A stretch of DNA of 64,000 nt, taken from positions 222,846 to 286,845 of IMG/VR virus record IMGVR_UViG_3300042892_002922; one strand, given 5' to 3'. Below the pieces are notes generated by a model. The model ran no database searches. It was not told the origin of the DNA and was given only the letters and a program-made list of their open reading frames with translations. Below, one piece after another: positions 1-46,212 of this stretch. How positions within the stretch are numbered: the stretch's first letter is position 1; the number at the start of each line of letters is the position of its first letter. The position numbers were made by a program, and so were the translations under genes. Origin of the DNA: a virus (lineage: Duplodnaviria > Caudoviricetes).

Positions 1-1467
1 TTAAAAGTACAAAGAGTTATTAATAATTCAAAAAAAGTTTTCCTTAAGACACCAATATATTCTATTAAGAGTGTATATAATGTTTTAAAGAACAAAAAAG
101 ATGTTAAGAAGAATTTAGCAAAAATATCTGATAAAGTTTTCTACTCTAAACATCACGACTCACATACATACTATTCATTTTATACATCACCATTTAATGA
201 CGCTGTTGTTTTATCGGTTGATGGTGTTGGTGAAAGTGAAACAATACAAATTGCCACAATCTATAATAATAAGTTATATCAAATACCACACACAGAATAC
301 CCAAACTCATTAGGGTTATTTTATTCTGCTATGACATCTTTCTTAGGGTTTAAACCCAATGAAGGTGAATATAAAGTAATGGGTTTGGCATCTTATGGAA
401 ACCCTAAAAAATATAGACAAAAAATAGATTCATTAATTTCATACAAACAAGGGTTTTTAACTTGCAATATGGATTGTTTTGTTTGGGATAGAAGTGACAA
501 GGTTATGTTCAACCATAATCTATCAAAAAAATTAGGGATTGAAAATAGATTACCAGATGAAAAACTAACAGTACAACATCACGATTTAGCGGCCGCGGTT
601 CAAGAAACCTACGAGGTTATTTTAAGTAAAATACTAGAAGAGATATCAATATTAACTAACACTAGAAATTTATGTCTTAGCGGTGGCTGTGCTTACAACG
701 GATCAGCAAATGGAAAGTTAACAAATAACGGTTGGTTTAAAAATTTATGGATACCTCCAGCACCATCTGATGCAGGATCGGCTATTGGTGCGTGTTTAAA
801 TTATCTGGACACTAATAATAAACTAACAAAAAAGATTGACACAACACCGTTCTTAGGCCCAGAATACACTAATGAGGAATACTTGTCGGTTATCGATGAA
901 GAAATAGTGAGATACAGTGAAATAAGTAGAGAAAAACTATTAAAATTAATTTCTACCGAATTATATAATGGCAAAGTTGTTGGATGGTTCCAAGGTAAAA
1001 TTGAATTTGGTTCTAGAGCATTGGGTAACAGGTCGATACTAGCAAATCCAATGATAATTGGTATGCAAAAGAAGATTAATCGTGTTATAAAGAAGCGAGA
1101 ACTTTTTAGACCATTTGCACCTATGGTGACAAAAGAAAATCAAACAAAATATTTTCTATATGACAAGGATGTGCCATATATGAATCAAGTTGTTAAGGTT
1201 AAAAAGGAATACGTTGGTAAGTTAATAGCAACAACTCACGTTGACGATACAGCTAGAATTCAAACAGTTACAAGTGAAAATAACGTATATGACTTATTAA
1301 TTGAATTTGAAAAGATTAGTGGTGTATCAGTATTATTGAACACATCGTTTAACGTTAAAGATAAAACAATGGTATTAACGCCACAAGATGCTATGGATAC
1401 ATTTTTAGACACGGAAATGGATATCTTAGTATTAGGTAATAACGTAATTTATAAAAAAACAATATGA
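1..1467 (+). CDS. Carbamoyltransferase (NodU/CmcH family), 5'-truncated by window edge
   Basis: Frame 1 is open from base 1 (KHHDSH, VDGVGE motifs upstream of the listed ATG); YKVMGLASYG, LCLSGGCAYN, PAPSDAG, EFGSRALGNRSILA, FRPFAP, LLNTSFN. Confidence 0.92.
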   Translation, partial: LKVQRVINNSKKVFLKTPIYSIKSVYNVLKNKKDVKKNLAKISDKVFYSKHHDSHTYYSFYTSPFNDAVVLSVDGVGESETIQIATIYNNKLYQIPHTEYPNSLGLFYSAMTSFLGFKPNEGEYKVMGLASYGNPKKYRQKIDSLISYKQGFLTCNMDCFVWDRSDKVMFNHNLSKKLGIENRLPDEKLTVQHHDLAAAVQETYEVILSKILEEISILTNTRNLCLSGGCAYNGSANGKLTNNGWFKNLWIPPAPSDAGSAIGACLNYLDTNNKLTKKIDTTPFLGPEYTNEEYLSVIDEEIVRYSEISREKLLKLISTELYNGKVVGWFQGKIEFGSRALGNRSILANPMIIGMQKKINRVIKKRELFRPFAPMVTKENQTKYFLYDKDVPYMNQVVKVKKEYVGKLIATTHVDDTARIQTVTSENNVYDLLIEFEKISGVSVLLNTSFNVKDKTMVLTPQDAMDTFLDTEMDILVLGNNVIYKKTI

Positions 1468-1580
1468 AAAAATTAATTAAATGGTTCTTAGATAAGATTG
1501 AAAGAATCAAAAGAGATCGTAAACTTAAAAAGAAAATTGCTGAGTTAAAGAAGAGAGACCCATTCATTTATAAACACTAA
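1464..1580 (+). CDS. Small basic hypothetical protein (38 aa, MKKLIKWFLDK...KRDPFIYKH)
   Basis: ATGA overlap with the carbamoyltransferase stop; fills the gap; translated by hand. Confidence 0.55.
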   Translation: MKKLIKWFLDKIERIKRDRKLKKKIAELKKRDPFIYKH

Positions 1581-1591
1581 AAACATTACAA

Positions 1592-2713
1592 TTGGAAAAC
1601 AAGGAAATATTAAAAGATTACGTTTGCTTAATGCCATTCTTATCCACCGACGTTCAGCAAGCATCACAATTCGTTTGTTGCCCATCTTGGTGCTTTAAAA
1701 GTTTAAGAGTAGATGAGAATGGCGAAGAAGAAGATTGGGCATCTTACTTTGACACTAGCGCAGACGTAATGAGGAACTGGACATCAACGCCAGCACATGA
1801 CATTAGAAAATCAATGGTTGATGGTTCATACAGACATTGCAATCATGTAGTATGTCCAAGATTAAATCAATTAATCAATGGTAGTGAGACCACGCCATAT
1901 ATGTTTATGAAGAAGGAAGAATTTCAAAAAACCTTTAACATATATAATGAGGACGATTTAAAAAAGTTTGACACGCCACCAGAAGAAATATTGTTTGGGT
2001 TTGATAGAAGTTGCAATCTTAAATGTCCGAGCTGTAGGGTAAACTTAATACCAAATGACAATGTCGAATCTGAGGATTATAAAAATAAATTACATCTACT
2101 AAACTCAATCGAGAAGAATTTTGCTAGTAATTTAAAAAGAATAATGATAACCGGTAGTGGTGATCCGTTCTATTCTAAAATCTATCGCGATTACTTAATA
2201 AATTTTGACAGTAGTAAGTATCCCAAGTTAGAAGCGTTACAGATTATAACCAATGGTAACCTATTAAATGAAAAAATGTGGAACTCAATGAAAGCAACTC
2301 CACACATTAAAATCATTGAGATTAGTATTGACGCCGGAACTAAAGACACATATGAGAACAAAACAAGGTTAAATGGTAAATGGGATGTGTTAATGGAAAA
2401 TCTACGTTTTTTAAGTACCCAGAATCACATTATTGAGGAATTTGTGTTATCAATGGTGGTTAGTAAACACAATTATAAAGAAATGTATACGTTCTATGAA
2501 TTGATAACTGACATATTTAAAAATTCAAATTTTAAATGGGGACTATCAATCAACTACAGACAATTGGTTGACTGGGGCACATTTTCAAAAGAAACGTTAG
2601 AAGAATTACAGGTCTTTAACACAGAACACCCTGAATATCAAGATTTTATGTCTGAATTAAAAAAGATACACAACCAACCGTTTGTTAATCATAATTTCAA
2701 CCATCTTCTATAG
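1592..2713 (+). CDS. Radical SAM protein with N-terminal twitch/SPASM-like Cys domain
   Basis: CNLKCPSC (CxxxCxxC), ITGSGDPF, SIDAG; N-terminal CLMPF...CCPSWC...CNHVVCP; TTG start. Confidence 0.85.
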   Translation: MENKEILKDYVCLMPFLSTDVQQASQFVCCPSWCFKSLRVDENGEEEDWASYFDTSADVMRNWTSTPAHDIRKSMVDGSYRHCNHVVCPRLNQLINGSETTPYMFMKKEEFQKTFNIYNEDDLKKFDTPPEEILFGFDRSCNLKCPSCRVNLIPNDNVESEDYKNKLHLLNSIEKNFASNLKRIMITGSGDPFYSKIYRDYLINFDSSKYPKLEALQIITNGNLLNEKMWNSMKATPHIKIIEISIDAGTKDTYENKTRLNGKWDVLMENLRFLSTQNHIIEEFVLSMVVSKHNYKEMYTFYELITDIFKNSNFKWGLSINYRQLVDWGTFSKETLEELQVFNTEHPEYQDFMSELKKIHNQPFVNHNFNHLL

Positions 2714-2745
2714 GTTTTTTGACTTTTTTTAGTTATATTAGTAAT

Positions 2746-3180
2746 ATGATATACTGGTTAACAGGCCAACCCGGCGCAGGAAAAACAACCTTAGCAAAAT
2801 ACTTAGTGGAATACTTTCCGAAAGATGAGGTTACTCACATCGATGGGGATGACTTAAGGGACATCTTTAAAAACAAGGACTATTCCATAACAGGTAGAAG
2901 ATTAAACATCCAAAGAGCACAATACATTGCACAATTTATGCATAGTAAGGGACATAATGTTATTGTGTCCTTAGTTTCACCATATAGAGACCAAAGAGAA
3001 GAATTTAAATTTAGTACATCGGTTGTCGAGATTTATGTACATACCACAGAAGATAGAGGTAGAAACCAATTCCATGTTGAGGAATATGAACCACCATTAG
3101 AAAATTTTATAGACATAGATACAACAATAAAAAACGAAACAGATTCGTATTTTGAACTATTAAAAAAATTATCATTATGA
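2746..3180 (+). CDS. cysC: Adenylyl-sulfate (APS) kinase
   Basis: WLTGQPGAGKTT P-loop, IDGDDLR, VSLVSPY, YEPP; start moved to ATG 2746 (ORF track starts at 2719). Confidence 0.85.
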   Translation: MIYWLTGQPGAGKTTLAKYLVEYFPKDEVTHIDGDDLRDIFKNKDYSITGRRLNIQRAQYIAQFMHSKGHNVIVSLVSPYRDQREEFKFSTSVVEIYVHTTEDRGRNQFHVEEYEPPLENFIDIDTTIKNETDSYFELLKKLSL

Positions 3181-3692
3181 TGACAAATGGTATTATCATT
3201 GACAATTTTTTAGACAATGTTGATGAAATAAGAGAGGAAGCGTTGTTATTAGATTATACTAAATCATTACCTGAAAGTGAAGGTTGGAAAGGGTTTAGGT
3301 GTTTAAATGGAAACATGTTGACACTTGATTTACATGAAAAGATTAAAGAAAAGTTAGTTGAAACTAATATAAAATTTGATAATTGTGATATGAGGTGTTT
3401 TTTTCATTATACATTGGAAGAACATAATGTAGGTAAAAAAAACACACATCGTGATTATGGTTTTGATTATGCTGGGGTTTTATACCTAGCACCAAACCCA
3501 CAAAAAAATTCAGGTACGTCTTTTTATAATGATTTAGGTGAAGAAACCGGTTACTTGGAAAACGTTTATAATAGATTAGTAATTTATCCAGCGAATGAGT
3601 TACACTCTTTAAAAGAATCTTTTGGTAACGATATTAATAATGGTAGATTAACTTTCACGTTTTTTTGTAAATTAAAAAATAACAATATATGA
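3177..3692 (+). CDS. 2OG-Fe(II) oxygenase-like protein
   Basis: IIDNF start, HRD, AGVLYL, GTSFY, NRLVIYPANELHS, GRLT. Confidence 0.7.
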   Translation: MMTNGIIIDNFLDNVDEIREEALLLDYTKSLPESEGWKGFRCLNGNMLTLDLHEKIKEKLVETNIKFDNCDMRCFFHYTLEEHNVGKKNTHRDYGFDYAGVLYLAPNPQKNSGTSFYNDLGEETGYLENVYNRLVIYPANELHSLKESFGNDINNGRLTFTFFCKLKNNNI

Positions 3693-4069
3693 GTAAGAAA
3701 TATGCAATGTACATCGGTAGGTGGCAAAATTGGCATAAAGGTCACGAATGGTTGATCCGTCAACAAATGGACCAAGGTAAGAACATATGGGTAGCTATTA
3801 GGGATGTTGAAGTTGACGAGAACAACCCTAAAACAGCTCAAGAGGTTTTTCAAATGTTAATCCAGGAGCCCTTTTTTAACGAGAATTTTGATAAGATTTT
3901 ACTATCAATTATCCCAGATATCGAATCGGTTAATTACGGTAGAGGTGTTGGTTACGATGTAATTTATCATGAGCCACCGGCGGATGTTGCGGTAATAAGT
4001 GGAACTGCGATTAGAACTGGACATATGACCGCTGATGGTTCAATAAAATATGACCAAACAAAAGGATAA
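3689..4069 (+). CDS. Minimal HxGH nucleotidyltransferase (cytidylyltransferase-like fold)
   Basis: IGRWQNWHKGH and C-terminal ISGTAIR motifs. Confidence 0.75.
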   Translation: MSKKYAMYIGRWQNWHKGHEWLIRQQMDQGKNIWVAIRDVEVDENNPKTAQEVFQMLIQEPFFNENFDKILLSIIPDIESVNYGRGVGYDVIYHEPPADVAVISGTAIRTGHMTADGSIKYDQTKG

Positions 4070-4284
4070 TGATTGTAGAACGTAAACGACATATTGCGAA
4101 AACAATATCCTATCGCATTATAAGCACTATAATAGGTTTCCTTATAATGTGGTGGGTTAGTGGATCAATTAAGATTGGCGCGACCTTTGGTGTGGCTGAA
4201 TTGGTGTACAAACCTATTCAATATTACCTACACGAAAGGATTTGGTATAGATGGATAAAGTTCGGGGTAAAAGATAAAAAATAA
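4069..4284 (+). CDS. DUF2061-like small membrane protein
   Basis: RHIAKTISYRII...YYLHERIW pattern with two hydrophobic segments. Confidence 0.7.
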   Translation: MIVERKRHIAKTISYRIISTIIGFLIMWWVSGSIKIGATFGVAELVYKPIQYYLHERIWYRWIKFGVKDKK

Positions 4285-4285
4285 G

Positions 4286-4292
4286 TATTTAT
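4286..4292 (+). promoter_or_regulatory. TATTTAT motif, candidate phage late promoter
   Basis: Intergenic, 16 nt before ATG 4309; same heptamer before several other unit-leading genes. Confidence 0.4.
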
Positions 4293-4308
4293 ATATAAAT
4301 TAGAAAAT

Positions 4309-5796
4309 ATGAGAACAGTATTGATAGGATCAGATTTTATGTACGATAAGGATGGTAATTTAAGACCCATCGAAATAAACACTGCGGTTGGTTGGGATGG
4401 TCCCGAAAAAGTGGAAGACGATGCAGATTGTTTGGATTTAACAAGTTTATATCAATTTGTTGAGGATAATAATTTCCAAACGATACATTATGTTGGTGAT
4501 ATTGGTCCATTACACGTGACATTAATGACACATTATAGCGGAAGTTCTGTTACATATGAATTTCATGGGGTTGGAGCTACTTCCATTACAGTTCCATACA
4601 TAGAAGATACTGAAACGACTTTAATTATTAGGAGTGCATATGACACAACAGCACTAGTGGATGACACATATTGTAAGGATAAAATAGAGTTCATGAATCT
4701 AATTAAAGATTCTTCTTTTGGCTCCCAATTTGCGTACATTGACGAAAATAACACATTGGTGTCAAATATCACATCTATAAATGATAACGGCGAACACCCT
4801 AATTTTATTTTAAAATCTAGATTTCCAGGTTATGACAAGTTAATTTATCCAAAATTTTTTAAAGTTACAACTCAATCTGAATTAGACACTATAATAGCAA
4901 ATAATGTTACAAGTGAGTATTTTTTAATGGAGTACCTATGTAACGTCAATAAACTATGGGAAGGGCATTTAACGGTTATAAGAAGTTTAAACATTTTAGT
5001 CCCACCAAATTTAGAATCAATTCAAATTGGCCAATATACAAAATTGAATCAAAATATGTTACTAGATAATGTGACATATGATTCAATCACATTTGAAGTA
5101 TATTCAGATTTCAAAGAGAGTTATAGTACAAACCCACCTACCGGTTTTCAACCTAAATTATTGAATACTGATATGGTAGAAATGGCAGATGGGACATTAA
5201 AAACTGCATTGGATTTACAAATTGGGGACGTTATTAAAACAATTGAAATACCAAATGAAAAGGGAACTAGTATAGATAGTTACGTATCCTCCGAATTTGG
5301 GCTTACGTACGATACGTTGGTAAGTGATGCAATATATACAACTAATGTCGTAACCAAAAAACAAAAAGTAAACACCTTAACTTTTATAAATGAATTAACA
5401 TTTGAAGATGCTAGTACCTGGGAAGATACTATGGGCTCAAAGTATTTGATAGACAGAGAAGGTGTGGTTATGTTTAAATCATTATGGGGGATATTTCCAG
5501 GAGATGTGGTTATATTATTAGATACTACTGATGATAATATAAATTTTGTAAGAAAAACAGTTACATCAAATATTCAAGTTAAGAGAGTGTTCTCTGGTTG
5601 GTTTATTTCAGTTGATACCGCTATGTTATTTTTAACTAAAACAGCCGGGTCAACCAATAACGAATCATATGTTTCAATTGAACATAACCTTATATCTTGT
5701 CCCAATTGGACATGTACAAACGTTTGCTGGTCCGTCTGTCCATCATGTCCGAAGTATATGTCTTGTCAATCTAATTACTGTTTTCCAGTATGTTAA
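4309..5796 (+). CDS. Circularly permuted ATP-grasp-like domain + Hint domain + 35-aa Cys-rich tail
   Basis: N-terminal GSDFMYDKDGNLRPIEINT, FILKSRFPG, FLMEY; Hint block A-like LNTDMVEMADGTLKTALDLQIGDVI; terminal EHN followed by an 8-Cys peptide. Confidence 0.6.
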   Translation: MRTVLIGSDFMYDKDGNLRPIEINTAVGWDGPEKVEDDADCLDLTSLYQFVEDNNFQTIHYVGDIGPLHVTLMTHYSGSSVTYEFHGVGATSITVPYIEDTETTLIIRSAYDTTALVDDTYCKDKIEFMNLIKDSSFGSQFAYIDENNTLVSNITSINDNGEHPNFILKSRFPGYDKLIYPKFFKVTTQSELDTIIANNVTSEYFLMEYLCNVNKLWEGHLTVIRSLNILVPPNLESIQIGQYTKLNQNMLLDNVTYDSITFEVYSDFKESYSTNPPTGFQPKLLNTDMVEMADGTLKTALDLQIGDVIKTIEIPNEKGTSIDSYVSSEFGLTYDTLVSDAIYTTNVVTKKQKVNTLTFINELTFEDASTWEDTMGSKYLIDREGVVMFKSLWGIFPGDVVILLDTTDDNINFVRKTVTSNIQVKRVFSGWFISVDTAMLFLTKTAGSTNNESYVSIEHNLISCPNWTCTNVCWSVCPSCPKYMSCQSNYCFPVC

Positions 5797-5825
5797 TAAC
5801 CTTCTTAAATAAATTTAAATAAAAA

Positions 5826-5915
5826 ATGGCAACAATTATATCAAATACAGACATCAATACTTTAAACACCACAATTACAACAATAGGTAGTTTAATTGTA
5901 ACAGCAAACAGTTAG
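5826..5915 (+). CDS. 29-aa Thr/Ile/Asn-rich small ORF (MATIISNTDINTLNTTITTIGSLIVTANS)
   Basis: A-rich initiation context (taaataaaaaATG); fills the gap; translated by hand. Confidence 0.4.
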   Translation: MATIISNTDINTLNTTITTIGSLIVTANS

Positions 5916-5938
5916 TATAAAATCTAATAAGTTATTTT

Positions 5939-6472
5939 ATGATACATTTCATACCAAATATTCTTACTAAGGATGAGTGTGAATACTTAACGAATCAATT
6001 TGATTTCGAAAGAAAATATCAAATCTCGGTGGATAATGAATATACTGGCACCAATATATCATATGGGTTTGCCCCTTCATTTGCGTTTAATACCTATTTA
6101 AATAAATTAAAATCAAAAGTGTTAGAATATAACAATAATTTTGATGATTTATTCAATGTAAACACATTTGTTAGGGAATATATGAACACCTCAATGTTAA
6201 AAAAACATTTAGATAGAAAAGACATTAGTGTTACTATGTCTATATGTTTAGAATCCACAATAAATAAAGAATGGCCGTTATGTGCGGAAATCGGAAATAA
6301 GGAATATTGTTTCAACACAAATATTGGTGACGGTATTTTATTATTTGATGCGGATAAAATCACACATTGGAGGGAACCCTTAATATGTCTGGAGAAAGAA
6401 AGAGTTGTCCAATTTTTTTTACATTGGAAACCTTCTGATTACGTCGCAAAAAAAACAAAATCATTATTATAA
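5939..6472 (+). CDS. 2OG-Fe(II) oxygenase
   Basis: LKKHLDR (HxD), GDGILF, HWREP, QFFLHW. Confidence 0.75.
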   Translation: MIHFIPNILTKDECEYLTNQFDFERKYQISVDNEYTGTNISYGFAPSFAFNTYLNKLKSKVLEYNNNFDDLFNVNTFVREYMNTSMLKKHLDRKDISVTMSICLESTINKEWPLCAEIGNKEYCFNTNIGDGILLFDADKITHWREPLICLEKERVVQFFLHWKPSDYVAKKTKSLL

Positions 6473-6483
6473 AAAAATAAATT

Positions 6484-7068
6484 ATGCCATTTACATATAC
6501 AATAGAGTCAACCTTTTTAACAAAAGAAGAATGTGATTTAATATTAGATTTTTCATTAAAAGAATTAAAATTAGTACCATCGGAAATTCTTACCAATTAC
6601 ACCGATGGTGGCGACGTTAATACCGATATTAGAAAATCAAATCAAGTATTTTACCCCTATTATAAAAAATTTCCATTTTTATTAGAAAAAATGAGTAAAT
6701 TATTAAATCAACATATTTTTGTTAAAGGGTTCGATTTAGATTTTAAAGAAAGTCAATTTCAGTTTACTGAGTATCATCCAGGCGGACATTTTGGCTGGCA
6801 TAGAGATGCTCATGGAAAAAAAATAACGGATTATGACAGGTATTGTTCATTAGTGATACAACTAAATGATGAGTATGGAGAGGGTGATTTACAAATAAAA
6901 GATGATCAGAATGGGACCCTAACAGTTGAAAAGGGTACAGGAAATTTGATATTATTTTTATCAAATATTGAACATAGAGTAGTGCCAGTAAAAAGTGGGA
7001 TTAGATATACACTAGTTAATTGGGTGAAATTAAAACAAAAAAAAGATTATAAAAAAACACTTTTATAG
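6484..7068 (+). CDS. 2OG-Fe(II) oxygenase (P4H/PKHD-like)
   Basis: FGWHRD, SLVIQL, GDLQI, HRVVPVKSGIRYTLVNW. Confidence 0.85.
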   Translation: MPFTYTIESTFLTKEECDLILDFSLKELKLVPSEILTNYTDGGDVNTDIRKSNQVFYPYYKKFPFLLEKMSKLLNQHIFVKGFDLDFKESQFQFTEYHPGGHFGWHRDAHGKKITDYDRYCSLVIQLNDEYGEGDLQIKDDQNGTLTVEKGTGNLILFLSNIEHRVVPVKSGIRYTLVNWVKLKQKKDYKKTLL

Positions 7069-7069
7069 T

Positions 7070-7387
7070 ATGAAAATAAATTTTAAAGAAATATTAAATG
7101 CGTGGTATAATGTTATAAATCACACACCAGAACAAAAGGAATTAGCAGATAAAAGATTCGCAATATGTTTAGAATGCCCCTCTAAAATAGAAATTTTAAA
7201 ATACAAGAAATGGCTTTTTAAATGTAAAGAATGTGGTTGCCCTTTAGGCGCAAAAGTTTACACTGAAACAACATATCTTACTAAAGACAAATCTTGTCCA
7301 CTTGATAAATGGAAAGAAGTTGAAATGGAATTTATGAGTAAACATAGTGACACGATTAAATATAAAACTAAAAAAACATTTCTTTAG
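7070..7387 (+). CDS. Small Cys-rich, probably metal-binding protein
   Basis: CLECP...CKECGCPL...CPLDKW. Confidence 0.65.
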   Translation: MKINFKEILNAWYNVINHTPEQKELADKRFAICLECPSKIEILKYKKWLFKCKECGCPLGAKVYTETTYLTKDKSCPLDKWKEVEMEFMSKHSDTIKYKTKKTFL

Positions 7388-7389
7388 TT

Positions 7390-8079
7390 ATGGGTTATTT
7401 AATAAACGATGACCTTTTATGGGTGATCACCCCTAAATGTGCTAGCGACTCAATAGAAACTGCATTATTAAACTCAAGTTTAAATTTAAAAAAATATAGC
7501 GAACACTTCGAACAACATACCCATATGCATATACCACTAAACGAGTGCTTAACTAAGTTTGGTAAAAAAGAAACAATATGTATCACTAGAGATTGGTTTG
7601 AAAAATGGTTAAGTTCATTAAATTTTATTTGGGATTATATAGAATTATATAGTGAATATGAACCAGTATGTAAATGGGAGGACATCAATAATAATGTTAT
7701 TTATGAGATATTTGATAGCGAATTTGTAAATAAACTTTACTCATTAAATCATACCTCTAATGAAGAATGTTTTTTGAAATTATTAAAAAGGAACACCGAA
7801 GATATTATAAACGTACCCAAAGAAATTTATGGAATAATAATAACTCTAATATCTGAACGCTATTGGAAAAGTAATGTAAAATGCACATATGAATTTGATA
7901 TTAAAAAATTAGACGATTTTGTCAATTTCATTGAAAATAGGTTTGGTGAAAAATTAATAATAGAAAAGAAAAACGTATCTACAAAAAGACCAAATAAATT
8001 AATAGTAAATAATGAATTGAAATCTTTTGTTTGGGAAAAATTTGAAAAAATATTTGAAAAAAGAAATCAATTAATTTAA
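7390..8079 (+). CDS. Sulfotransferase-fold-like protein
   Basis: VITPKCASDSI resembles the 5'-PSB loop; downstream ITRDWFEKWLS resembles the 3'-PB R..S motif. Confidence 0.5.
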   Translation: MGYLINDDLLWVITPKCASDSIETALLNSSLNLKKYSEHFEQHTHMHIPLNECLTKFGKKETICITRDWFEKWLSSLNFIWDYIELYSEYEPVCKWEDINNNVIYEIFDSEFVNKLYSLNHTSNEECFLKLLKRNTEDIINVPKEIYGIIITLISERYWKSNVKCTYEFDIKKLDDFVNFIENRFGEKLIIEKKNVSTKRPNKLIVNNELKSFVWEKFEKIFEKRNQLI

Positions 8080-8080
8080 T

Positions 8081-8749
8081 ATGGCAACTATTTGGACATT
8101 TGGGGATTCATTTACTTCTGGAGACGGGTGTGTAGAAAACCTAAGAATTAGAGACGGTGATTTTAGATATTATAACGAATATAAAAAACTAGGCAGTGAT
8201 ATATGGCCTAATTTATTAGGTAAAACTTTAGGATATGACGTAAAAAATCTAGGAAAAAGCGGTGCAAGTAATGACTATATTTTAGATTCTATTATTGATA
8301 ATTTTAACATGATAGAACCAAATGATGTGGTGATAATTGAAAAAACATTTTACCAAAGATTTGATATACCTAAATCAACGGGTGATGGGTTTCAAACAAT
8401 TTATGCTGAAGGACTTTATCAACTTTCTATTGATTTAAAAATGGAAAGATATTTTTGTGAAGATAAATTAGAAATTGAAACGGTATTAAATTATGGTGTT
8501 TTATTTTCCGACAATAAATTATTTAAAGAAAGACAAGATAAACGATTTGAATTTATACAAGCACAATTAAATAATAAAACAGATAAAATATTAATATGGG
8601 ATGTTTTAGATTTTTTAGACGGTAAAATTGAAACAATAGGTCAACACACTGAGGGTAATATAAAAGATTATCATTTTAGTTTTAATGGTCATAAAAGATT
8701 TAGCGAATTTCTATATAAAAAATTATATATTAAACCCTCATTAGTTTAA
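8081..8749 (+). CDS. SGNH/GDSL-like hydrolase or acyltransferase
   Basis: FGDSFT, NLGKSGASND, DYHFSFNGH. Confidence 0.7.
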   Translation: MATIWTFGDSFTSGDGCVENLRIRDGDFRYYNEYKKLGSDIWPNLLGKTLGYDVKNLGKSGASNDYILDSIIDNFNMIEPNDVVIIEKTFYQRFDIPKSTGDGFQTIYAEGLYQLSIDLKMERYFCEDKLEIETVLNYGVLFSDNKLFKERQDKRFEFIQAQLNNKTDKILIWDVLDFLDGKIETIGQHTEGNIKDYHFSFNGHKRFSEFLYKKLYIKPSLV

Positions 8750-9481
8750 ATGTTAGTCGATAAAAAATTTATTTTTATAAGTTTACCAAGATGCGCATCA
8801 ACATCATTTATGATTAGGTGTGTTAAAAACAAAATACCAATAGAGCATTTCAACTCAAACCATGATAATCAGTTGATTAAAATCAATGAATGGGAAAAAA
8901 TGGGTAATGAAGAATTGGCGGATAGATTAGTACATGCGCACGAACCATTACATATGTTACAAGAAAAATTTGGGACGAACAACCAAATTATTTCAATAAA
9001 ACGAAATAAGTACGATAGATTTTTATCTTTATGGAAACACATCATAGACGAATTACACAGAATTAACAAACTTGATATTGCTGACATCTTTTCAAAATTA
9101 ACAACTAATGATCTGTTTGTTAATATTAAACCAAATGACATTTATAATTCGGAAAATAGAATTAAAGTTATTGATAATTTTTTATCTAGGTTAGAAATTT
9201 CAAAAGAAGAATCTTACACTAAAAATATGTTAGATATATTGTTTATGCCAGTAGTTGAACTTACAAATAACGACCCAAATATTATCTGGTTTGATATTAA
9301 CAGTTTGAGAGATTTAGAAAATTGGGTGTCAAAAAAACTAAATAGAGATTTTAAAATGGAAAAAATAAATTCAAGTAAACATTTTAATTCAGTAATGGAG
9401 AACGATGATAATTTTAAACAGAAATATGATAATCTTTATAAAGAATTTGACCAAAGAAAAACAACTAAAACATTATTGTAA
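8750..9481 (+). CDS. Sulfotransferase family 2-like protein
   Basis: FISLPRCASTS; RNKYDRFLSLW (R.P..R..S-like). Confidence 0.6.
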   Translation: MLVDKKFIFISLPRCASTSFMIRCVKNKIPIEHFNSNHDNQLIKINEWEKMGNEELADRLVHAHEPLHMLQEKFGTNNQIISIKRNKYDRFLSLWKHIIDELHRINKLDIADIFSKLTTNDLFVNIKPNDIYNSENRIKVIDNFLSRLEISKEESYTKNMLDILFMPVVELTNNDPNIIWFDINSLRDLENWVSKKLNRDFKMEKINSSKHFNSVMENDDNFKQKYDNLYKEFDQRKTTKTLL

Positions 9482-10650
9482 TGGAAATTCAATTTTGGTA
9501 TAGCGATATTTTACCAAATACAAATATTAGAAATTCAATCGAAAAAATAGATAGTGACATCTTATTTAAAAATATCCACACCGATAAGGTAGATGTTACA
9601 AAATTAAATTTTTTATTTTTTTTGTTAGAAACTGAATGGACTAATTCCGATATCCCAAACATAGCGTATACTCATTCTAGTGAATTTATTGAATTACTAA
9701 TTAAGTTACAATCTGAAAATTTCTATTTTATGTGTAATAATTCTGGGGAAGCCGAACTTTGGGTGGATAATTTATCCTTGAATTTTTTTAATTTGTTAAA
9801 AAAAAATAAAATTGATTTTAACAGATTAATAATTGTAAATAACGATTCATCTAAAATTGGTATAGGTAAAACAAAATATGGGGATTTTATATTAAACACC
9901 TGTTTTTTTCCTAATTTCTTTTTATCTACCTATGAGCATTTAAAGTCATATGTAACTGAATTAAACCCTAACACCATACCTGATAAAAAATTCTTATGTT
10001 TAAATAGAAGAATGGGTTATGAAAAATATAAATTAATCGAGAGGTTATATCATATGGGGTTGTTAAATGACACCAGATTTTCTTGGGTAAAAAATAGCAC
10101 GAATAAAAATCTGTTAAATAAAGAATTACTTAATGAATTAAACATAGATGTTGATAACTTTAACCCTATTCAGTTAGAAGATGATGTAATGTATGGTGCT
10201 GATTTAGTTATGGAAAAGTATCTTTACACCATAAACCCCAAATGGTATTATAAAAGTAAAGTTAATATTATATTGGAAACAATGCTATACCCAAATTCAA
10301 TTCATCTGACAGAAAAAACCTGGAAAGCAATTTATTTAGGTGTCCCGTTTGTTATATATTCACCATCTAAACACTATCTTAAAACCTTAAGGGATATGGG
10401 ATTCAAGACATTTAATTCTGTGATTAATGAGGATTATGATGAGATGCTAGGTAAAGATAAAATAACACAAGTTATAAAAAGCGCTGAAGAACTGGCTAGT
10501 ATCTATGACACCCCCAAAGTATTAGATATATGTAGATTTAACCAAGAATTATATTTTAATTTTCAACACAGAAAAAAAATATATAATGAGTTTTTTTTAA
10601 ATAAAATTTGTGATGTTAAAAACTTAACAATTCCTAAAACATTAATTTAA
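9481..10650 (+). CDS. Conserved phage hypothetical protein, possibly glycosyltransferase-like
   Basis: FLCLNRR, ET...HLTEKTWKAI, PF, LRDMGFKTF, EDYD pattern; function not established. Confidence 0.5.
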   Translation: MEIQFWYSDILPNTNIRNSIEKIDSDILFKNIHTDKVDVTKLNFLFFLLETEWTNSDIPNIAYTHSSEFIELLIKLQSENFYFMCNNSGEAELWVDNLSLNFFNLLKKNKIDFNRLIIVNNDSSKIGIGKTKYGDFILNTCFFPNFFLSTYEHLKSYVTELNPNTIPDKKFLCLNRRMGYEKYKLIERLYHMGLLNDTRFSWVKNSTNKNLLNKELLNELNIDVDNFNPIQLEDDVMYGADLVMEKYLYTINPKWYYKSKVNIILETMLYPNSIHLTEKTWKAIYLGVPFVIYSPSKHYLKTLRDMGFKTFNSVINEDYDEMLGKDKITQVIKSAEELASIYDTPKVLDICRFNQELYFNFQHRKKIYNEFFLNKICDVKNLTIPKTLI

Positions 10651-11700
10651 ATGGGTAATAAAATTGATTTAAAAAATTATACGTGTAGTGTGCCATTTAC
10701 ATCATTAGAAATACATAACAATGTTTGTTTTGTGTGCTGTCCATCCTGGTTACCAAACAAAGTAGAACTTAGTGAAATTCCATTAAAAGATGTTTATAAT
10801 AGCGAACCAATTATTGATATAAGAAACTCGATATTAGATGGTTCATTTAGATATTGTAGTCAAGAGCTTTGTCCTTATTTAAGTAAATTAGTGAAGTATG
10901 GTGCGGAATCTGGGCCAGTCACTTTAAAATCAAATTCAAATGTTAATAGCCCTATTGTAAAAAATAACGCACCAGATTATTTGATGATGAATTTTGATAG
11001 AACATGTAACTACAAATGTCCATCATGTAGAGTTGATTTAATAGTTGAAAATAGTGAGGGTATAAAACGTGTAGAAAAAACAATAGAGGAGATTGATAAT
11101 CACTACTCGAAATATGTTAAAACCCTATATATTACTGGATCAGGGGATCCGTTTGTTTCTGTCGGATTCAGAAATTATCTAAGAAATTTTAACCCTAAAA
11201 AATACCCAAACTTAAATTCCATACACCTACACACAAATGCGTCTATGTGGAATAAAGAAATGTGGGATAGTATGCCAAACATACACGGATATGTCCACTC
11301 TTGTGAAATTAGCATCGACGCTGGTACAAAAGACACCTATGAAAATAAAACCAGGTTGGGTGGTAAATGGGATAATTTAATTGATAATTTAAAATTCATA
11401 AGCACTCTACCAATTTCAGTTAAAACATCATTTGTGGTTCAAGATTCCAATTACATGGAAATGGGTATTTTTTACAACTTAATGTACTCAATATTTGGTA
11501 AAAGAGTAAATGTGTTTTTTGGTAAGATAACTAATTGGGGGACATTTTCAGAAGGTGAATTTAAATTAAAACAAGTATGGGATACGGAACATCCAGAACA
11601 TGAGTTATTTAAAAAAGAGTTTAATAAAGTATGGAAAAATGAAAACCTTTTTCATAATTTATATGAGTTTATTGACAACACAAATAAAACTTTAATATAG
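10651..11700 (+). CDS. Radical SAM protein, paralog of 1592-2713
   Basis: CNYKCPSC, ITGSGDPF, EISIDAGTKDTYENKTRL shared with 1592-2713. Confidence 0.85.
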   Translation: MGNKIDLKNYTCSVPFTSLEIHNNVCFVCCPSWLPNKVELSEIPLKDVYNSEPIIDIRNSILDGSFRYCSQELCPYLSKLVKYGAESGPVTLKSNSNVNSPIVKNNAPDYLMMNFDRTCNYKCPSCRVDLIVENSEGIKRVEKTIEEIDNHYSKYVKTLYITGSGDPFVSVGFRNYLRNFNPKKYPNLNSIHLHTNASMWNKEMWDSMPNIHGYVHSCEISIDAGTKDTYENKTRLGGKWDNLIDNLKFISTLPISVKTSFVVQDSNYMEMGIFYNLMYSIFGKRVNVFFGKITNWGTFSEGEFKLKQVWDTEHPEHELFKKEFNKVWKNENLFHNLYEFIDNTNKTLI

Positions 11701-12261
11701 ATGAGAATTTTAATACTATCACATACAAGATGTGGTTCTACCACATTATGTAAATGGATATCAAAAGAATTGAATTTTGAAGTAGATTATGATCATTACG
11801 ATGCTAACACATTTAATTCAATTTTCATTAAAAATAATATAATAAAAAAAATTGTTATCGAAGAATACAATCCACCAAATGAAGTTATTGAAAAATTTGA
11901 TAAAGTTATTTGTTTAAGTAGGGAAAATAATATTGACAGTGCCATAAGTTTTATTAATGCTGATAACAAAAGCAGGTGGCACGACATATATGAAATAACA
12001 AATGAGTGGATTGAAGATAATAAAAATAAAATAATAGAAACTGTTTACAAATATGAACAATTAAAAACCTTATTAAAAAATAAAGATTTATTTCAAATAA
12101 CGTATGAAAATATGTATATTAATAAAATAGACGTTAATAGAGTTATTAGTTATTTAAACATTGAAAACCCAAAACATTTGGATATGCTTGATTATGATAA
12201 AAAATATAGAAAAGACACATATACTTTAACACATGATTTTAAGAGAAAAAATATCATTTAG
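11701..12261 (+). CDS. Sulfotransferase-fold-like protein
   Basis: ILSHTRCGSTTL, LSREN, ITYE. Confidence 0.55.
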   Translation: MRILILSHTRCGSTTLCKWISKELNFEVDYDHYDANTFNSIFIKNNIIKKIVIEEYNPPNEVIEKFDKVICLSRENNIDSAISFINADNKSRWHDIYEITNEWIEDNKNKIIETVYKYEQLKTLLKNKDLFQITYENMYINKIDVNRVISYLNIENPKHLDMLDYDKKYRKDTYTLTHDFKRKNII

Positions 12262-12763
12262 TAAAGATGAGTGTGATTACATAATAAATTTATCCAAAGA
12301 GTTGGATGAACTTAAACCATTTGGTTATGATGACAATGTTAATAAAGAAAAAATAACAATTAGATATTTTGTTTGGGTTATCAATAGAAACAATAAAACC
12401 CAATGGATATTTGATAAAATTCAAACGTATTTTATAAATAAAACTAATATAAAGATAAAAAAAGAATTAGATAAAATATATATACACAAATATGACACCG
12501 GCCAACAATTTGAAAAACATGCTGACACATATTATAAAACACAAATACACAATGTAGGGGTATGTTTAAACAATGATTATGATGGAGGTGAATTTGTTTT
12601 ATATAATCCAGAAGAACAATTACCAAAAGAAACGGGTAACATATATACTTTCCCTAGTCAAAGAATACATGAAGTAAAAAAAATAATAAAGGGTGAAAGG
12701 TGGAGCATTATTGGATTTTTACATATTGATAATTTAGATTTCCCTAAAAAATCACTAATATGA
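12233..12763 (+). CDS. 2OG-Fe(II) oxygenase
   Basis: EKHAD, CLNNDYDGGEF, HEVKKIIKGERWS. Confidence 0.85.
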   Translation: MILREKISFSKDECDYIINLSKELDELKPFGYDDNVNKEKITIRYFVWVINRNNKTQWIFDKIQTYFINKTNIKIKKELDKIYIHKYDTGQQFEKHADTYYKTQIHNVGVCLNNDYDGGEFVLYNPEEQLPKETGNIYTFPSQRIHEVKKIIKGERWSIIGFLHIDNLDFPKKSLI

Positions 12764-13317
12764 AAATTGGAATAACAGGACATTCTAACGGAATTGGAAA
12801 TGACATTTATTCAAATTTAATAAAAGAATATGATGTTATAGGATTTAGTAGAAGTAATGGTTTTGATATTAAAAATACGGATAAAATTATAGAACAATTG
12901 GATGATTGTGATATTTTTATAAACAACGCTTACGAAGGAAACTATCAAACAATATTATTTGAATTAATTTTTGATAAATGGAAATTTTTACCAAAAACAA
13001 TTATTAATATGAATAGCAGTTGTGTGTATCATTCATCCGATTGGTCGCCAGAATATGCAAATAATAAAAAAGAGTTAAAAGAAGTATCTTTAAATGCGAT
13101 TAGAAATAATAAAAATAAAAAAGTTAGGGTCATAAATTTATATCCATCCACCTTATCAACTCATATGGGGTTTGAAAGTTTAAATAAATTAGATACTGAA
13201 AATCTTGCAAAAATTATAAATTGGTTAATAAAACAACCACAAGAAATAGAAATTAGAGAGATGAGTATATATTGTACAACATTGGAGAAAGAATTTAAAA
13301 CAAATAAATTAATATGA
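12760..13317 (+). CDS. Short-chain dehydrogenase/reductase-like protein
   Basis: ITGHSNGIG Rossmann motif, INNA, Y..NKK. Confidence 0.7.
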   Translation: MKIGITGHSNGIGNDIYSNLIKEYDVIGFSRSNGFDIKNTDKIIEQLDDCDIFINNAYEGNYQTILFELIFDKWKFLPKTIINMNSSCVYHSSDWSPEYANNKKELKEVSLNAIRNNKNKKVRVINLYPSTLSTHMGFESLNKLDTENLAKIINWLIKQPQEIEIREMSIYCTTLEKEFKTNKLI

Positions 13318-14084
13318 AATCAATAAAATTTTGGAATAAAAGCGGATTCGATGTTGCAACTTATAAATGGAATTTATCAGAAAGACGTAATAAAACATTT
13401 AATGGCTCTGGTTCGGATGATAGTGAAACCAATACCTACACATATAATGAACTAGGATTCAGAGGTGATTCAATATACAAGGATGGTTTTAGAATTCTGT
13501 CTGTCGGTTGTTCACATACGGAAGGTGTGGGGGTAAATGACTGGGAAACTTGGCCGCATATATTTTCTAGGTTAATACCTAATGGTATTGATTTAAATGC
13601 TGGGTTTGGTGGTAGAAGTAATGATTACATTGCTAGGTGTATTGTGTCCTTAATTGACACCTTTAGACCCAATCTGGTTAATCTAATGTACACATACCCC
13701 TCAAGAAAAGAATACTACAAGTTTAATGGGGATTTAGAGCCCTTTCATATGACCCCCTGGGGATATTTCAAAGAAGATTCGGAAGGTGTTGATGAATACA
13801 AGGCAATCGCAAAGATAACCCATGATGAAAATGATTTGATTAATTGGTATAAAAATCATTTATTAATAACCAATTTCCTATCACTAAGAAAAATCCCATA
13901 TACTTGGAATGGTTCTTTTCTAATGGATGAAGTTATATCAGATAAACATCGTTTTGATGGTGACTATGGTAACTTCAGAGAGTTTTCCGTTGACGGTAAA
14001 CATGCAACAGGAAAACACAATGAAGAATATGCCAAAAATTTATATGACTTCATTAAGAAAAACTTCCCAACATATATCCCTTAG
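13314..14084 (+). CDS. SGNH-like protein
   Basis: VGCSHTEG, NAGFGGRSND, DGKHATG. Confidence 0.6.
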   Translation: MKSIKFWNKSGFDVATYKWNLSERRNKTFNGSGSDDSETNTYTYNELGFRGDSIYKDGFRILSVGCSHTEGVGVNDWETWPHIFSRLIPNGIDLNAGFGGRSNDYIARCIVSLIDTFRPNLVNLMYTYPSRKEYYKFNGDLEPFHMTPWGYFKEDSEGVDEYKAIAKITHDENDLINWYKNHLLITNFLSLRKIPYTWNGSFLMDEVISDKHRFDGDYGNFREFSVDGKHATGKHNEEYAKNLYDFIKKNFPTYIP

Positions 14085-14125
14085 GGGCTTGGTTTTCTTA
14101 CAAATTTTCCTTATTTTAGGTACTA

Positions 14126-16846
14126 ATGAATATATTAGCACATACGTCGTTTATTGGTACCACTGGGTATGCCAATCATGCAAGGTCGTTTTTCTGCGCC
14201 TTAAACAAGTATCACAAAGTAAGGGTTAGAAACCTTACCATTGGTAATAGTTGGAATGATTATAATGAAAAGCCACACGAAGGCGAATCATATATCACTG
14301 ATGAGATGAAGGATATGTTAATCCTTCAAAGTTTGTTTAACGCTGATGGTTCAACTAGTGATTATCCAATTTATAACTTTAAAAAAGATTTTGTTCCAGA
14401 TGTCCACATTGTTTTGGTGGAAACCGACAACATTTATTTTTATCATGATTATGATGGCTATAAAATAGCGTACAATGTTTGGGAATCAACATTATATCCA
14501 GATAATTTCTTCAAGCGACTATTTTACTTTGATGAGGTTTGGGTGCCGACCAAGTGGCAGTTTGATTGTTTAGTTGCGCAAGGGTATCCTGCTGAAAAAA
14601 TATCTATAGTTCCAGAAGGTGTTGATGTTGACACATTTAAACCAATAGAAAAATACCCACAAAGAGATAAGATTAGATTTGTGTATTTTGGTCGTTGGGA
14701 TTATAGAAAAGGAACGACTGAAGTACTCAGAGCTTTTGGTGAGGTCTTTAAAGATGTTGATGATGTAGAATTAATTGCATCTGTTGAGAACCCGTACCCG
14801 AACGATGGTTTAAAGTCAACAGAGGAACGAATTAAAAAACACGAAATTGATACAGAGAAAATAACGTTTCTTAATTTTCCATCGAGAGAAGAATATGTAA
14901 AATACTTACAAGAAGCACATGTATTTGTTTCTTGTGCTAGAAGCGAAGGTTGGAATCTACCGCTTATTGAAGCGATGGCTTGCGGTACGCCGGCCATTTA
15001 TTCTAATTGGGGTGGTCAACTAGAATTTGCTGAAGGTAAAGGTGTTCCGGTTAGTATCAAGGAATTAAGACCTGCTAACATAGAAAGAAAAGAATTTCCA
15101 GGTGAATATTGTGAACCAGATTGGGATGACCTTAAATGGAAAATGAGACAAGCGTACGATTATCAAACAGCTATGTGGATTAAATCCAGATCTGATGCTA
15201 AAGATATTCACAAGAACTTTAATTGGGAAACAATAGCTGAAAACGCATCAAAAATAATCAACTCTAGATTCAAGTCATTTGCATTTGTTACAACTGGTAA
15301 CTTACAATATATGCCGGTTATTGAAAAGTTGGTACAATCATTAATGATGTTTTCAAGACACAAGATAATTGTTTATGGTGTTGATTGTGAAGTGCCGTTT
15401 GATTATCCTAATGTGATTAGAAAAACAATCAATCCACCCAAAATATCAGAACACGATAAATGGTATTGGAAACAATGGGCTTGTTTGGAATCATTAAACG
15501 AAGATTTTGATTATTATATTTGGGTTGACGGTGATGTTGTTGTTAATTACAATATCGATACCGTTACAAAATATTTCAAACATGTTGGTAGATATCCATT
15601 GTCGGATATACATGTTCAAGAAGAATTCTTTGGAACATATGATGACGGTAAAACGCAATTGTTTAATGAAGAGTTAGCTAAAAGATGGGGTGTTGAAAAA
15701 CAACAACCATACATGCATATTTGTTTCTACATTTACAATCAAGGTTCAAGAGCATTTTTTGATGGTATATTGGGATATTATGACACAATGATGAAAGGTA
15801 GCCCTGAAGATTATAAACGATATTTTTTATGGAATGATGAAGGTATTGATAATGCAATAAGATGGAACCACGGTTTTACTAATCATTTACCTATATCAAA
15901 TTTTGACACATCATCATATGATGGGGATGAAGGGTTTATTGATAAAACGTTACATCAGTTTTATAAGTTCTGGAATGAAGATGGTCCACAAAACTTCAAT
16001 AGAATATTTGGGTATCAATTTATACCAGAAGATAAATCAAATATATTATATTTCCACGGGAATAAGAATGCTGAGATATCGGACAAGATGATTGAGTTTA
16101 TTAAAATGAAAAGAGATGATTCATTTTATAAGTCATATTGTTTTTATACTGACGTATATAAATTGGAAAACTTTAATCAATATTTCAATATTGAAGGGGG
16201 TACAATTGAGATAGCAAACAAACATGGTTGGTTTGTTGCCATATTTCACGAGATATTTAATCTTTTGGATTATTATAAAAATAGAGAGAGAAGAATCTTT
16301 GATGGCGACGTTGTAGTTGAGTTGGGTGGGAATATCGGCATCTTTAATAGATGGGCGTACAGTCAAGGTGCTAGCAAAGTTATTTCGTTTGAGCCAGATA
16401 AAAGATACTTTAAACTTCTCTCATTAAATGCTGATCCGCGTTCTGTATTATTCAATGCTGCGGGAAGTGATTCTATTGGTGAATTAAGTTTATTTGAGAG
16501 CACACACATAGGTGGATCTAATTTATTTGGAACACAGGAAGGTGCTAAAGAATATAAGGTAAGAACATATACGCTAGATTATCTTTTTGAAACGGGGTTA
16601 GTTGATAAAATAGATTTTCTAAAGGTAGACATTGAGGGAGCAGAACATCACGCGTTCAAAGGTATCAGCGATGAAAACCTAATGAAAGTTAAAAACATTT
16701 CAATGGAATATCACCATAGCCACTTTGATTATGACGAAGAATTGAGACAAGATTTAATTAATCGTATGGTTAGATTAGGTTTTAACCCCTACACATTGTT
16801 TATGGGTGACAATAACGCACTACAAATGATATATTTTACAAGATGA
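14126..16846 (+). CDS. GT4 glycosyltransferase + second GT-like domain + FkbM methyltransferase fusion
   Basis: GRWDYRKG, SEGWNLPLIEAMACG; middle WVDGD; C-terminal ELGGNIG, LKVDIEGAE. Confidence 0.8.
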   Translation: MNILAHTSFIGTTGYANHARSFFCALNKYHKVRVRNLTIGNSWNDYNEKPHEGESYITDEMKDMLILQSLFNADGSTSDYPIYNFKKDFVPDVHIVLVETDNIYFYHDYDGYKIAYNVWESTLYPDNFFKRLFYFDEVWVPTKWQFDCLVAQGYPAEKISIVPEGVDVDTFKPIEKYPQRDKIRFVYFGRWDYRKGTTEVLRAFGEVFKDVDDVELIASVENPYPNDGLKSTEERIKKHEIDTEKITFLNFPSREEYVKYLQEAHVFVSCARSEGWNLPLIEAMACGTPAIYSNWGGQLEFAEGKGVPVSIKELRPANIERKEFPGEYCEPDWDDLKWKMRQAYDYQTAMWIKSRSDAKDIHKNFNWETIAENASKIINSRFKSFAFVTTGNLQYMPVIEKLVQSLMMFSRHKIIVYGVDCEVPFDYPNVIRKTINPPKISEHDKWYWKQWACLESLNEDFDYYIWVDGDVVVNYNIDTVTKYFKHVGRYPLSDIHVQEEFFGTYDDGKTQLFNEELAKRWGVEKQQPYMHICFYIYNQGSRAFFDGILGYYDTMMKGSPEDYKRYFLWNDEGIDNAIRWNHGFTNHLPISNFDTSSYDGDEGFIDKTLHQFYKFWNEDGPQNFNRIFGYQFIPEDKSNILYFHGNKNAEISDKMIEFIKMKRDDSFYKSYCFYTDVYKLENFNQYFNIEGGTIEIANKHGWFVAIFHEIFNLLDYYKNRERRIFDGDVVVELGGNIGIFNRWAYSQGASKVISFEPDKRYFKLLSLNADPRSVLFNAAGSDSIGELSLFESTHIGGSNLFGTQEGAKEYKVRTYTLDYLFETGLVDKIDFLKVDIEGAEHHAFKGISDENLMKVKNISMEYHHSHFDYDEELRQDLINRMVRLGFNPYTLFMGDNNALQMIYFTR

Positions 16847-17499
16847 GTACACTAGATAAATTAGCAAAAATGCACGGAACTGATAAGAGTTCTGATATAC
16901 ACAATTACTGTGTTAAGTATGAAAAGTATCTACCATTTAATCGTTATGATAAGTTAATGATGATGGAGATTGGTGTGTTAGATGGTAAATCCTTATTAAC
17001 TTGGAAGGATTATTTTTATCGTTCACACATTCTAGGTATTGATATAAATCCTGAATGTAAAAAATACGAAGAAGAAAGAATTACAATTGAGATTGGTTCT
17101 CAAGCTGATGGTGGTTTCTTATCTAGAACCAGCGAACATTATGGGCCATTTGACATCATTTTAGATGATGGTTCACATATGAATGACCATGTAACTTATT
17201 CTTTCCAGCATTTATTTGATTCAGTAAAACCAGGTGGCGTTTATATTGTTGAAGATTGTGCCACGGCTTACTGGGATGAATATGGTGGCGGTTATTTAAA
17301 ACCAAGTACAAGTATAGAATATTTTAAATCCTTATCAGATGATTTAAACTTCCGTGGACTAATGAATCACAACAAACCAAATGTACACGCAAGAAGGGAA
17401 GATTGGTTAATTGAAAATTCAAAAAGCATCCCAACATGTAGAACGGATATTGAATCCATAAATTTCCTAAATGGAATTATTATTGTAACTAAGAGATAA
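16843..17499 (+). CDS. Class I SAM-dependent (sugar O-)methyltransferase, MycE/TylE-like
   Basis: HGTDKS...HNY, EIGV, GIDI, ILDDGSH, GGVYIVED. Confidence 0.75.
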   Translation: MSTLDKLAKMHGTDKSSDIHNYCVKYEKYLPFNRYDKLMMMEIGVLDGKSLLTWKDYFYRSHILGIDINPECKKYEEERITIEIGSQADGGFLSRTSEHYGPFDIILDDGSHMNDHVTYSFQHLFDSVKPGGVYIVEDCATAYWDEYGGGYLKPSTSIEYFKSLSDDLNFRGLMNHNKPNVHARREDWLIENSKSIPTCRTDIESINFLNGIIIVTKR

Positions 17500-45436: not shown

Positions 45437-45907
45437 ATGGCATACGGAGATAAGGTAATAGACCATTTCAATAACCCACGAAATGTAGGAACTTTGGATA
45501 AAAGTAAATCCAATGTAGGTACGGGATTGGTTGGTGCACCTGAATGTGGTGATGTCATGAGATTACAAATAGAAGTGATTGACAACATCATTGTTGATGC
45601 AAAATTTAAAACCTTCGGATGTGGTTCAGCAATCGCCTCTTCTTCAGTAGCCACTGAATGGTTGAAAGGAAAGAGTATCGATGATGCGTTGACGATTGAT
45701 AACATGGATTTAGTGGAGGAACTATCGTTACCTCCAGTTAAGATACATTGTTCGGTATTAGCTGAAGATGCTATTAAATCCGCAATAAATGACTATAGAA
45801 AGAAGCAAGGATTACAAGAAATTAAATTCGAGGATATCTTTAATGACGAAAAAAGAGAAAGTGTTAAACAGTTTATTTTAGAAAACAAACAAAAAAATAA
45901 GTTATGA
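45437..45907 (+). CDS. iscU: Fe-S cluster scaffold IscU
   Basis: DHFNNPRNVG, GAPECGDVMRLQI, FKTFGCGSAIASSS, LPPVKIHCSVLAEDA. Confidence 0.95.
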   Translation: MAYGDKVIDHFNNPRNVGTLDKSKSNVGTGLVGAPECGDVMRLQIEVIDNIIVDAKFKTFGCGSAIASSSVATEWLKGKSIDDALTIDNMDLVEELSLPPVKIHCSVLAEDAIKSAINDYRKKQGLQEIKFEDIFNDEKRESVKQFILENKQKNKL

Positions 45908-46212
45908 GTTTTATCATTGGTAGGGCTTGTGTTGATTGTATGGATACTGCATGTGCAAATGTGTGTCCTGTTGATTGTATTCACGGACCAATTGATATAG
46001 AGGGTTCAGGTTCGGAAGTTGGGAAACAAGGTAAAGATGCGTTCCCTGGTGGACAACTTTACATAAATCCAGATATATGTATCAATTGTGGTGCATGTGT
46101 ACCTGAATGTCCCGTTAGTGCTATTTATGAGGACGAAGATTTAGCAATAAAAGCAGGTGATGAAGAGTATGTTCATAAGAACTACGAATTCTTTGGTTTA
46201 AAATATAATTAA
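45904..46212 (+). CDS. Dicluster ferredoxin (FdxA-like)
   Basis: CVDCMDTACANVCPVDCI and CINCGACVPECPV. Confidence 0.9.
   Translation: MSFIIGRACVDCMDTACANVCPVDCIHGPIDIEGSGSEVGKQGKDAFPGGQLYINPDICINCGACVPECPVSAIYEDEDLAIKAGDEEYVHKNYEFFGLKYN

Follow-up and report, generated by a model that had tools for sequence, protein, structure and literature searches.

A candidate third, minimal family of ATP sulfurylase encoded with APS kinase in phages and cells

A 126-aa HxGH nucleotidyltransferase (here NT), encoded together with a compact APS kinase in a freshwater phage, is likely to represent a third, minimal family of ATP sulfurylase, which in this phage would feed PAPS to sulfotransferases. The evidence is that of genomic context, and the activity is inferred from it. 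Only two types of ATP sulfurylase are recognized, Sat and CysDN (PMC6286981). The reaction and the protein superfamily are already known, while the NT family is new relative to the literature searched.

The cysC/NT module and its setting in the phage

The window, i.e., the whole stretch of 64,000 nucleotides analyzed, comes from a virus record that is an 80.6-kb phage fragment, about 20% complete. Its habitat is lake and freshwater metagenomes, and related phage contigs reach up to 316 kb. The features at issue are the following.

2746..3180, + strand: compact APS kinase, cysC, 144 aa (PF01583, E 3.6e-17)
3177..3692, + strand: DUF6445/2OG-Fe(II) oxygenase-like protein, 171 aa, inserted (PF20043, E 1.9e-9)
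3689..4069, + strand: NT, 126-aa HxGH nucleotidyltransferase, candidate minimal ATP sulfurylase (motifs, context, and fold)
4069..4284, + strand: DUF2061 small membrane protein, 71 aa (PF09834, E 1.5e-15)
7390..8079, + strand: sulfotransferase-like protein (Sulfotransfer_2/HS2ST-like), likely PAPS consumer (profile and embedding)
8750..9481, + strand: sulfotransferase-like paralogue of the 7390 product (phrog_3347 match and HS2ST profile)
11701..12261, + strand: sulfotransferase-like protein of a second type (Sulfotransfer_3/Stf0-like), with weaker support (CurM and PF13469)

Each of the first four genes overlaps the next at start/stop codons, the oxygenase-like gene being translationally coupled on both sides. 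In two close relatives (loci L001 and L002), cysC abuts NT directly, indicating that the oxygenase-like gene is a local insertion; its absence from this place in these relatives puts it outside the conserved module. A preliminary description of the window had reported cysC, a small nucleotidyltransferase with HxGH and SxTxxR motifs, and a DUF2061 gene at these positions. This held, except that the 171-aa insertion was omitted and cysC and NT are thus not adjacent here.

CysC retains the P-loop, DGD, and SxxSPY motifs, with a much shortened lid region (last strand to YEPP), and its APS kinase activity is inferred from sequence. It falls under the NCBIfam apsK cut-off (60 versus 138.7 bits), and all 19 of its PDB matches at E<1e-5 are APS kinases. 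Of 80 phage loci, 77 have a DUF2061 gene near NT, and among 80 GTDB loci four, all from Bacteroidota, have it fused to the APS kinase gene. No description of DUF2061 function was found in the literature searched, which left out most subscription papers. The protein could conceivably import sulfate or anchor the NT/CysC pair, a guess with nothing beyond gene linkage behind it.

None of the three sulfotransferase-like ORFs gave a Pfam match as a single sequence. The family profile of the 7390 and 8750 products matches heparan sulfate 2-O-sulfotransferase (HS2ST) at E 0.002, both PAPS-binding motifs (5'-PSB and 3'-PB) of the 8750 product align with those of HS2ST, and the 7390 product has embedding scores of 0.96 to 0.97 to Sulfotransfer_2 clusters. 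For the 11701 ORF the evidence is weak, consisting of a match to the CurM sulfotransferase at E 0.04 and PF13469 in 2 of 13 relatives. The earlier assignment of all three as sulfotransferase-like is hence supported for the first two and only weakly for the third.

The module sits within an extended cluster of co-oriented genes for tailoring enzymes (window 331 to 19622), comprising an NAD-dependent epimerase/dehydratase, a carbamoyltransferase, radical SAM enzymes, 2OG oxygenases, a GDSL-like protein, and methyl- and glycosyltransferases. The cluster abuts collagen-like tail-fibre genes, which run from 19668 onward. A promoter scan of the stretch was at chance level (28 versus 27.3), and no RNA holder is on record for it, an absence that carries no information on expression. 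Rhizobial nodPQ, nodH, and nodU provide a dedicated PAPS supply, a sulfotransferase, and a carbamoyltransferase that tailor a glycan. Compared with this nod logic, the window's genes are phage borne, NT stands in place of NodP/NodQ, and the acceptor is not identified.

Neither the contig nor any of 21 related phage records gave a match to Sat (PF01747) or CysD/CysH (PF01507), upholding for Sat and CysD the earlier statement that a sulfurylase gene is missing. One of these 22 records is 95% complete and the window's own contig about 20%. The same records gave no match to an APS/PAPS reductase, which favors sulfation over an assimilatory role for the phage cysC.

An unnamed family distinct from Sat and NadM

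NT carries the motifs H16-K-G-H19 and S104-G-T-x-x-R109 and belongs to a large, unnamed family with 5,420 relatives of like length, 826 representatives (50% identity) scoring E<1e-10 against the family profile. It passed no Pfam or NCBIfam cut-off, and in PHROGs it is known only as part of a "kinase." No description of the family was found in the literature searched, again with most subscription papers outside the search. The HxGH and SxTxxR motifs are 91 to 100% conserved overall (H16 98%, H19 100%, S104 99%, R109 99%), and the ATP-binding half (R11, H16, H19, S104-x-T106, and R109) is nearly invariant. Other near-invariant residues, R38 and G84-R85-x-V87-G88 (93 to 99% conserved), are new with respect to NadM.

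AlphaFold2 (AF2) gave a pLDDT of 42 from the single sequence and 92.6 from a 138-sequence alignment; the latter model predicts a Rossmann-like nucleotidyltransferase fold. Foldseek returned nothing at E<=0.001 with this model, and VIA-align was therefore used for fold comparison. The matches were NadM (Z 9.6), PPAT (Z 9.4), and Sat (Z 7.8).

NadM-type, archaeal NMN adenylyltransferase (MJ0541, 1F9A; also 1EJ2 and 2QJT) is the closest known protein (1F9A: E 8.5e-14, rmsd 2.5, 109 residues aligned). The two share a GRxQPxHxGH start, the NP loop, an aspartate before the deleted helix discussed next, and SxTxxR. Against three NadM sequences, NT shows a 17-residue gap that removes the helix between strands 3 and 4, which is also absent from the AF2 model, and a further 9 residues are lost after strand 4. 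In addition, RD stands where NadM has GSA and YGR where it has SGN/SNN, and an NAD-pathway context is lacking. The missing helix carries the nicotinamide-binding Asn/Trp (NxxxW) of NadM.

These matches raise the possibility that NT is a NadM-like NMN/NaMN adenylyltransferase, e.g., for phage NAD reconstitution, or one acting on another cofactor, the neighboring P-loop kinase then mimicking NadR (NMNAT plus NR kinase). In its favor, the best sequence and fold matches are NMNATs (1F9A as above; PRK01153, E 1e-7). We nonetheless consider this very unlikely. NT scores far under the NadM cut-offs (31.5 versus 127 bits for PRK01153 and 24.2 versus 181 for TIGR01527), the nicotinamide helix is deleted, and NT is paired with an APS kinase rather than an NR kinase. 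Moreover, no NAD-salvage gene cluster was seen among the recurrent neighbors of NT in 79 cellular loci, and true NadM is encoded separately in NT-bearing archaea.

Sat (1V47, from T. thermophilus) has the HxxH superfamily fold in common with NT (rmsd 3.1, 116 residues aligned). Each has an SGTxxR helix, in each strand 4 leads into a G-R loop and then G-V-G (GRDHAGVG in Sat), both are fused to APS kinase in either order (known Sat fusions being Sat-CysC/PAPS synthase, 2GKS and 1X6V), and both occur upstream of aprMBA. NT, in contrast, has 126 aa versus about 390 and no PUA-like N-terminal domain. The sulfate-binding QxRN (RNP) loop of Sat and its GRD loop, which follows strand 4 (PMC3779200), are also missing; NT has GRWQ and YGRxVG, with neither QxRN nor GRD-H-A. 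It does not match PF01747, and hhalign to Sat gave a probability of 22.6% with only the SGT helix aligning. CysD is more remote still, with a PP-loop fold that requires the CysN GTPase; it has no similarity to NT, for which no GTPase partner was seen.

A trimmed Sat, the origin initially suggested as a "stripped-down" sulfurylase, is accordingly ruled against by the missing motifs, the poor profile match, and the closer sequence and fold likeness to NadM. The same evidence makes NT better seen as a separate family, and by the motif, profile, cut-off, and helix tests it belongs to neither Sat nor NadM. Descent directly from Sat lacks support. When NadM sequences served as outgroups, NT proteins from all contexts formed one family in the tree, with the window's NT among members from Bacteroidota and Marinimicrobia. 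As NadM supplied the only outgroups, and branches were long and support moderate (89/88), the root is unsure and the origin remains undecided. The window's NT is 33% identical to Nitrospirales members and 44% to those of SAR11.

In the monomer model, residues 77 to 97 are unpaired, and without a crossover helix strand 4 cannot rejoin its own sheet. The dimer prediction inserts residues 78 to 83 into the partner chain, flanked there by strands 5-9 and 90-94, with a score of 0.85 versus 0.42 for the best control. In a benchmark, the dimer mark was met by 20 of 30 solved pairs and by 1 of 23 single chains. Contact agreement between runs was >=97% and pLDDT >=84. NT is thus predicted, with no measurement to support it, to form a strand-swapped homodimer. 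The swap would build each active site from two chains, unlike in Sat, with the G84-R85 loop following strand 4.

NT and APS-using enzymes across genomes

In phage loci, cysC lies near NT in 56 of 80, the other 24 having no kinase nearby. In GTDB cellular loci, an APS kinase accompanies NT in 72 of 80, fused to it in 40 in both orders (NT-kinase and kinase-NT), and some of the fused kinases pass the TIGR00455 cut-off. APS kinase-NT loci span Bacteroidota, Omnitrophota, Planctomycetota, Acidobacteriota, CPR, and archaea. Sulfotransferases and CysQ are recurrent cellular neighbors. These counts, which are inflated by related genomes, show the co-occurrence with APS kinase that the preliminary description had proposed as a check. 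Sat or CysD is also present in 13 of 50 NT-bearing genomes, and one locus (L096) has cysDN next door. A genome-wide test for anti-correlation in Chitinophagaceae was uninformative, NT occurring in just 1 of 121 genomes.

Many cellular NT loci sit in polysaccharide islands, and Atlas clusters near NT are labelled CTP_transf_like at 12 to 33% of members. Both observations would suit a sugar- or polyol-phosphate cytidylyl- or adenylyltransferase that serves the glycan cluster and is linked to cysC merely by shared residence in glycan islands. This reading, which we rank below even the NMNAT alternative, leaves the 40 APS kinase fusions unexplained, and the sir-cysH and aprMBA operons described next are not glycan loci.

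Contexts lacking the kinase are the most telling for NT function. In the Nitrospirales sir-APS reductase operon, whose reductase exceeds the TIGR02055 cut-off for the assimilatory, CysH-type APS reductase, the next gene is NT in 5 of the 25 loci and cysD in 18, and no locus has the two together. NT occurs in 5 of 41 Nitrospirales genomes, exactly those with NT after the reductase; all five lack CysD and have a Sat-CysC fusion elsewhere in the genome. Since these genomes are close kin, the case amounts to about one evolutionary event.

Among 61 SAR11 genomes, 29 have NT, 22 have aprA, and 3 have Sat; NT is present in 21 of the 22 with aprA. Directly before aprM, 7 genomes have NT and 12 have a gene for a HIT protein; of the remaining aprM loci, two have kinase plus NT a few genes upstream and one is unresolved. 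In Allochromatium, the position directly upstream of aprMBA is occupied by sat (PMC3779200), while P. ubique of SAR11 is reported to have AprBA and cysC but neither sat nor cysDN (PMC5069961). NT is hence linked to APS-using enzymes where sat or cysDN normally sits. The Fisher p value of 9e-9 is overstated, the Nitrospirales and SAR11 cases each being about one evolutionary event. APS kinase, CysH-type APS reductase, and AprBA have only APS in common, so the contexts of NT point to APS.

That the evidence indicates APS and not the exact reaction leaves room for other APS chemistry. NT could, for example, be an ADP-forming APS:phosphate adenylyltransferase, hydrolyze APS or PAPS, or bind APS without catalysis as a partner of the kinase or reductase. 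The HIT fold is known for APS phosphorolysis or hydrolysis, and its presence before aprM in the 12 SAR11 genomes favors this alternative, as do those genomes that encode NT alongside Sat or CysDN. It appears unlikely, because HxGH/SxTxxR, which bind the ATP beta/gamma phosphates and PPi, are 91 to 100% conserved, and because kinase fusion, the position after APS reductase, and nearby sulfotransferases call for production of APS, not its removal.

Proposed function and implications

On the sulfurylase reading, NT, apparently derived from a NadM/NMNAT-like ancestor, would catalyze ATP + sulfate <-> APS + PPi, with HxGH/SxTxxR holding ATP and R38 and R85 putatively binding sulfate. CysC and host pyrophosphatase would pull the unfavorable sulfurylase reaction on to PAPS, and the three sulfotransferases may then sulfate a glycan made by the phage or the glycosylated surface of its virion or tail fibres, the acceptor not being identified. 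The module would thus be a sulfation supply rather than one for sulfur assimilation. In SAR11, NT is envisaged to follow AprBA and to work in the direction of ATP formation. The earlier proposal that the small protein makes APS for CysC therefore has strong comparative support, the activity being inferred from context. Against the reading stand the lack of Sat's sulfate-binding motifs and the poor profile match to Sat, the co-occurrence with Sat or CysD, the near-single evolutionary events, the low identity to SAR11 and Nitrospirales members, and the kinase-free phages.

A bolder reading, which as a joint claim we favor only by a narrow margin, is that NT is a widespread, unannotated ATP sulfurylase from the NMNAT lineage, a strand-swapped dimer of 125-residue chains. 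It would provide the APS-to-ATP step that is reported to be missing in SAR11, replace cysDN in some Nitrospirales, and give phages autonomous PAPS for sulfating virion or host-surface glycans, phage cysC being then a gene for sulfation and not for assimilation.

Genome surveys infer sulfur metabolism from Sat and CysDN, and a third, tiny type, if true, would mean revising what is inferred for thousands of genomes. In SAR11 it would close the gap of AprBA and cysC without sat (PMC5069961). Phage cysC genes are widespread, transcribed, and now interpreted as assimilatory sulfate reduction (PMC10914622); they would then be one of the two halves of an autonomous system that supplies PAPS for sulfation. 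NT is a 14-kDa protein, its fused form is available in cultured phages, and a PAPS synthase of 250 aa could serve enzymatic sulfation.

Kinase-NT fusions occur in cultured Xylella, Xanthomonas, and Stenotrophomonas phages. Those of PHROG 10255 "kinase" (gp32 of Xylella phage Salvo and gp227 of Stenotrophomonas phage DLP6), annotated merely as kinase or hypothetical, form a distant branch of the NT family. Salvo (55 kb; L163:5233-7324) encodes a sulfotransferase-like gp29 (PF17784, E 6e-4) three genes upstream of gp32 and is a tractable system for finding the sulfation acceptor.

A second phage group (L020, L023, L024, L027, L069, L075, and L078) has NT and DUF2061, with no kinase nearby, between UV-endonuclease-like and peptide deformylase-like genes. 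In a 137-kb phage record (L066), NT lies beside sulfotransferases and no APS kinase match was found in the whole record; this phage may rely on host CysC or use APS itself as donor. Stand-alone NT genes amid housekeeping genes, with no APS-related neighbor, were seen in Marinoscillum (L088:8004-8342) and Nanoarchaeota (L136:7995-8390).

The SAR11 HIT protein that alternates with NT before aprM (132 aa, L191-L202) is a candidate APS phosphorylase or hydrolase. A CADD/PqqC-like gene (TIGR04305; L172:1895-2560, L203-L207) regularly precedes NT-aprMBA, and pab-like genes stand in its place in the HIT-type loci.

Within the window, many ORFs of the tailoring cluster end in a similar K-T/S-L-I/L C-terminal tail. 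A 495-aa ORF (4309-5796) without a family match is conserved in the vicinity of NT in 32 of the 80 phage loci. By eye, it is ATP-grasp-like at the N terminus, contains a Hint-like segment, and ends in a Cys-rich tail; in 39 loci it is accompanied by a small ORF, also Cys-rich (7070-7387). Also by eye, positions 45437-46543 carry phage Fe-S genes (iscU-like, ferredoxin, and iscA-like) that possibly serve the radical SAM enzymes.
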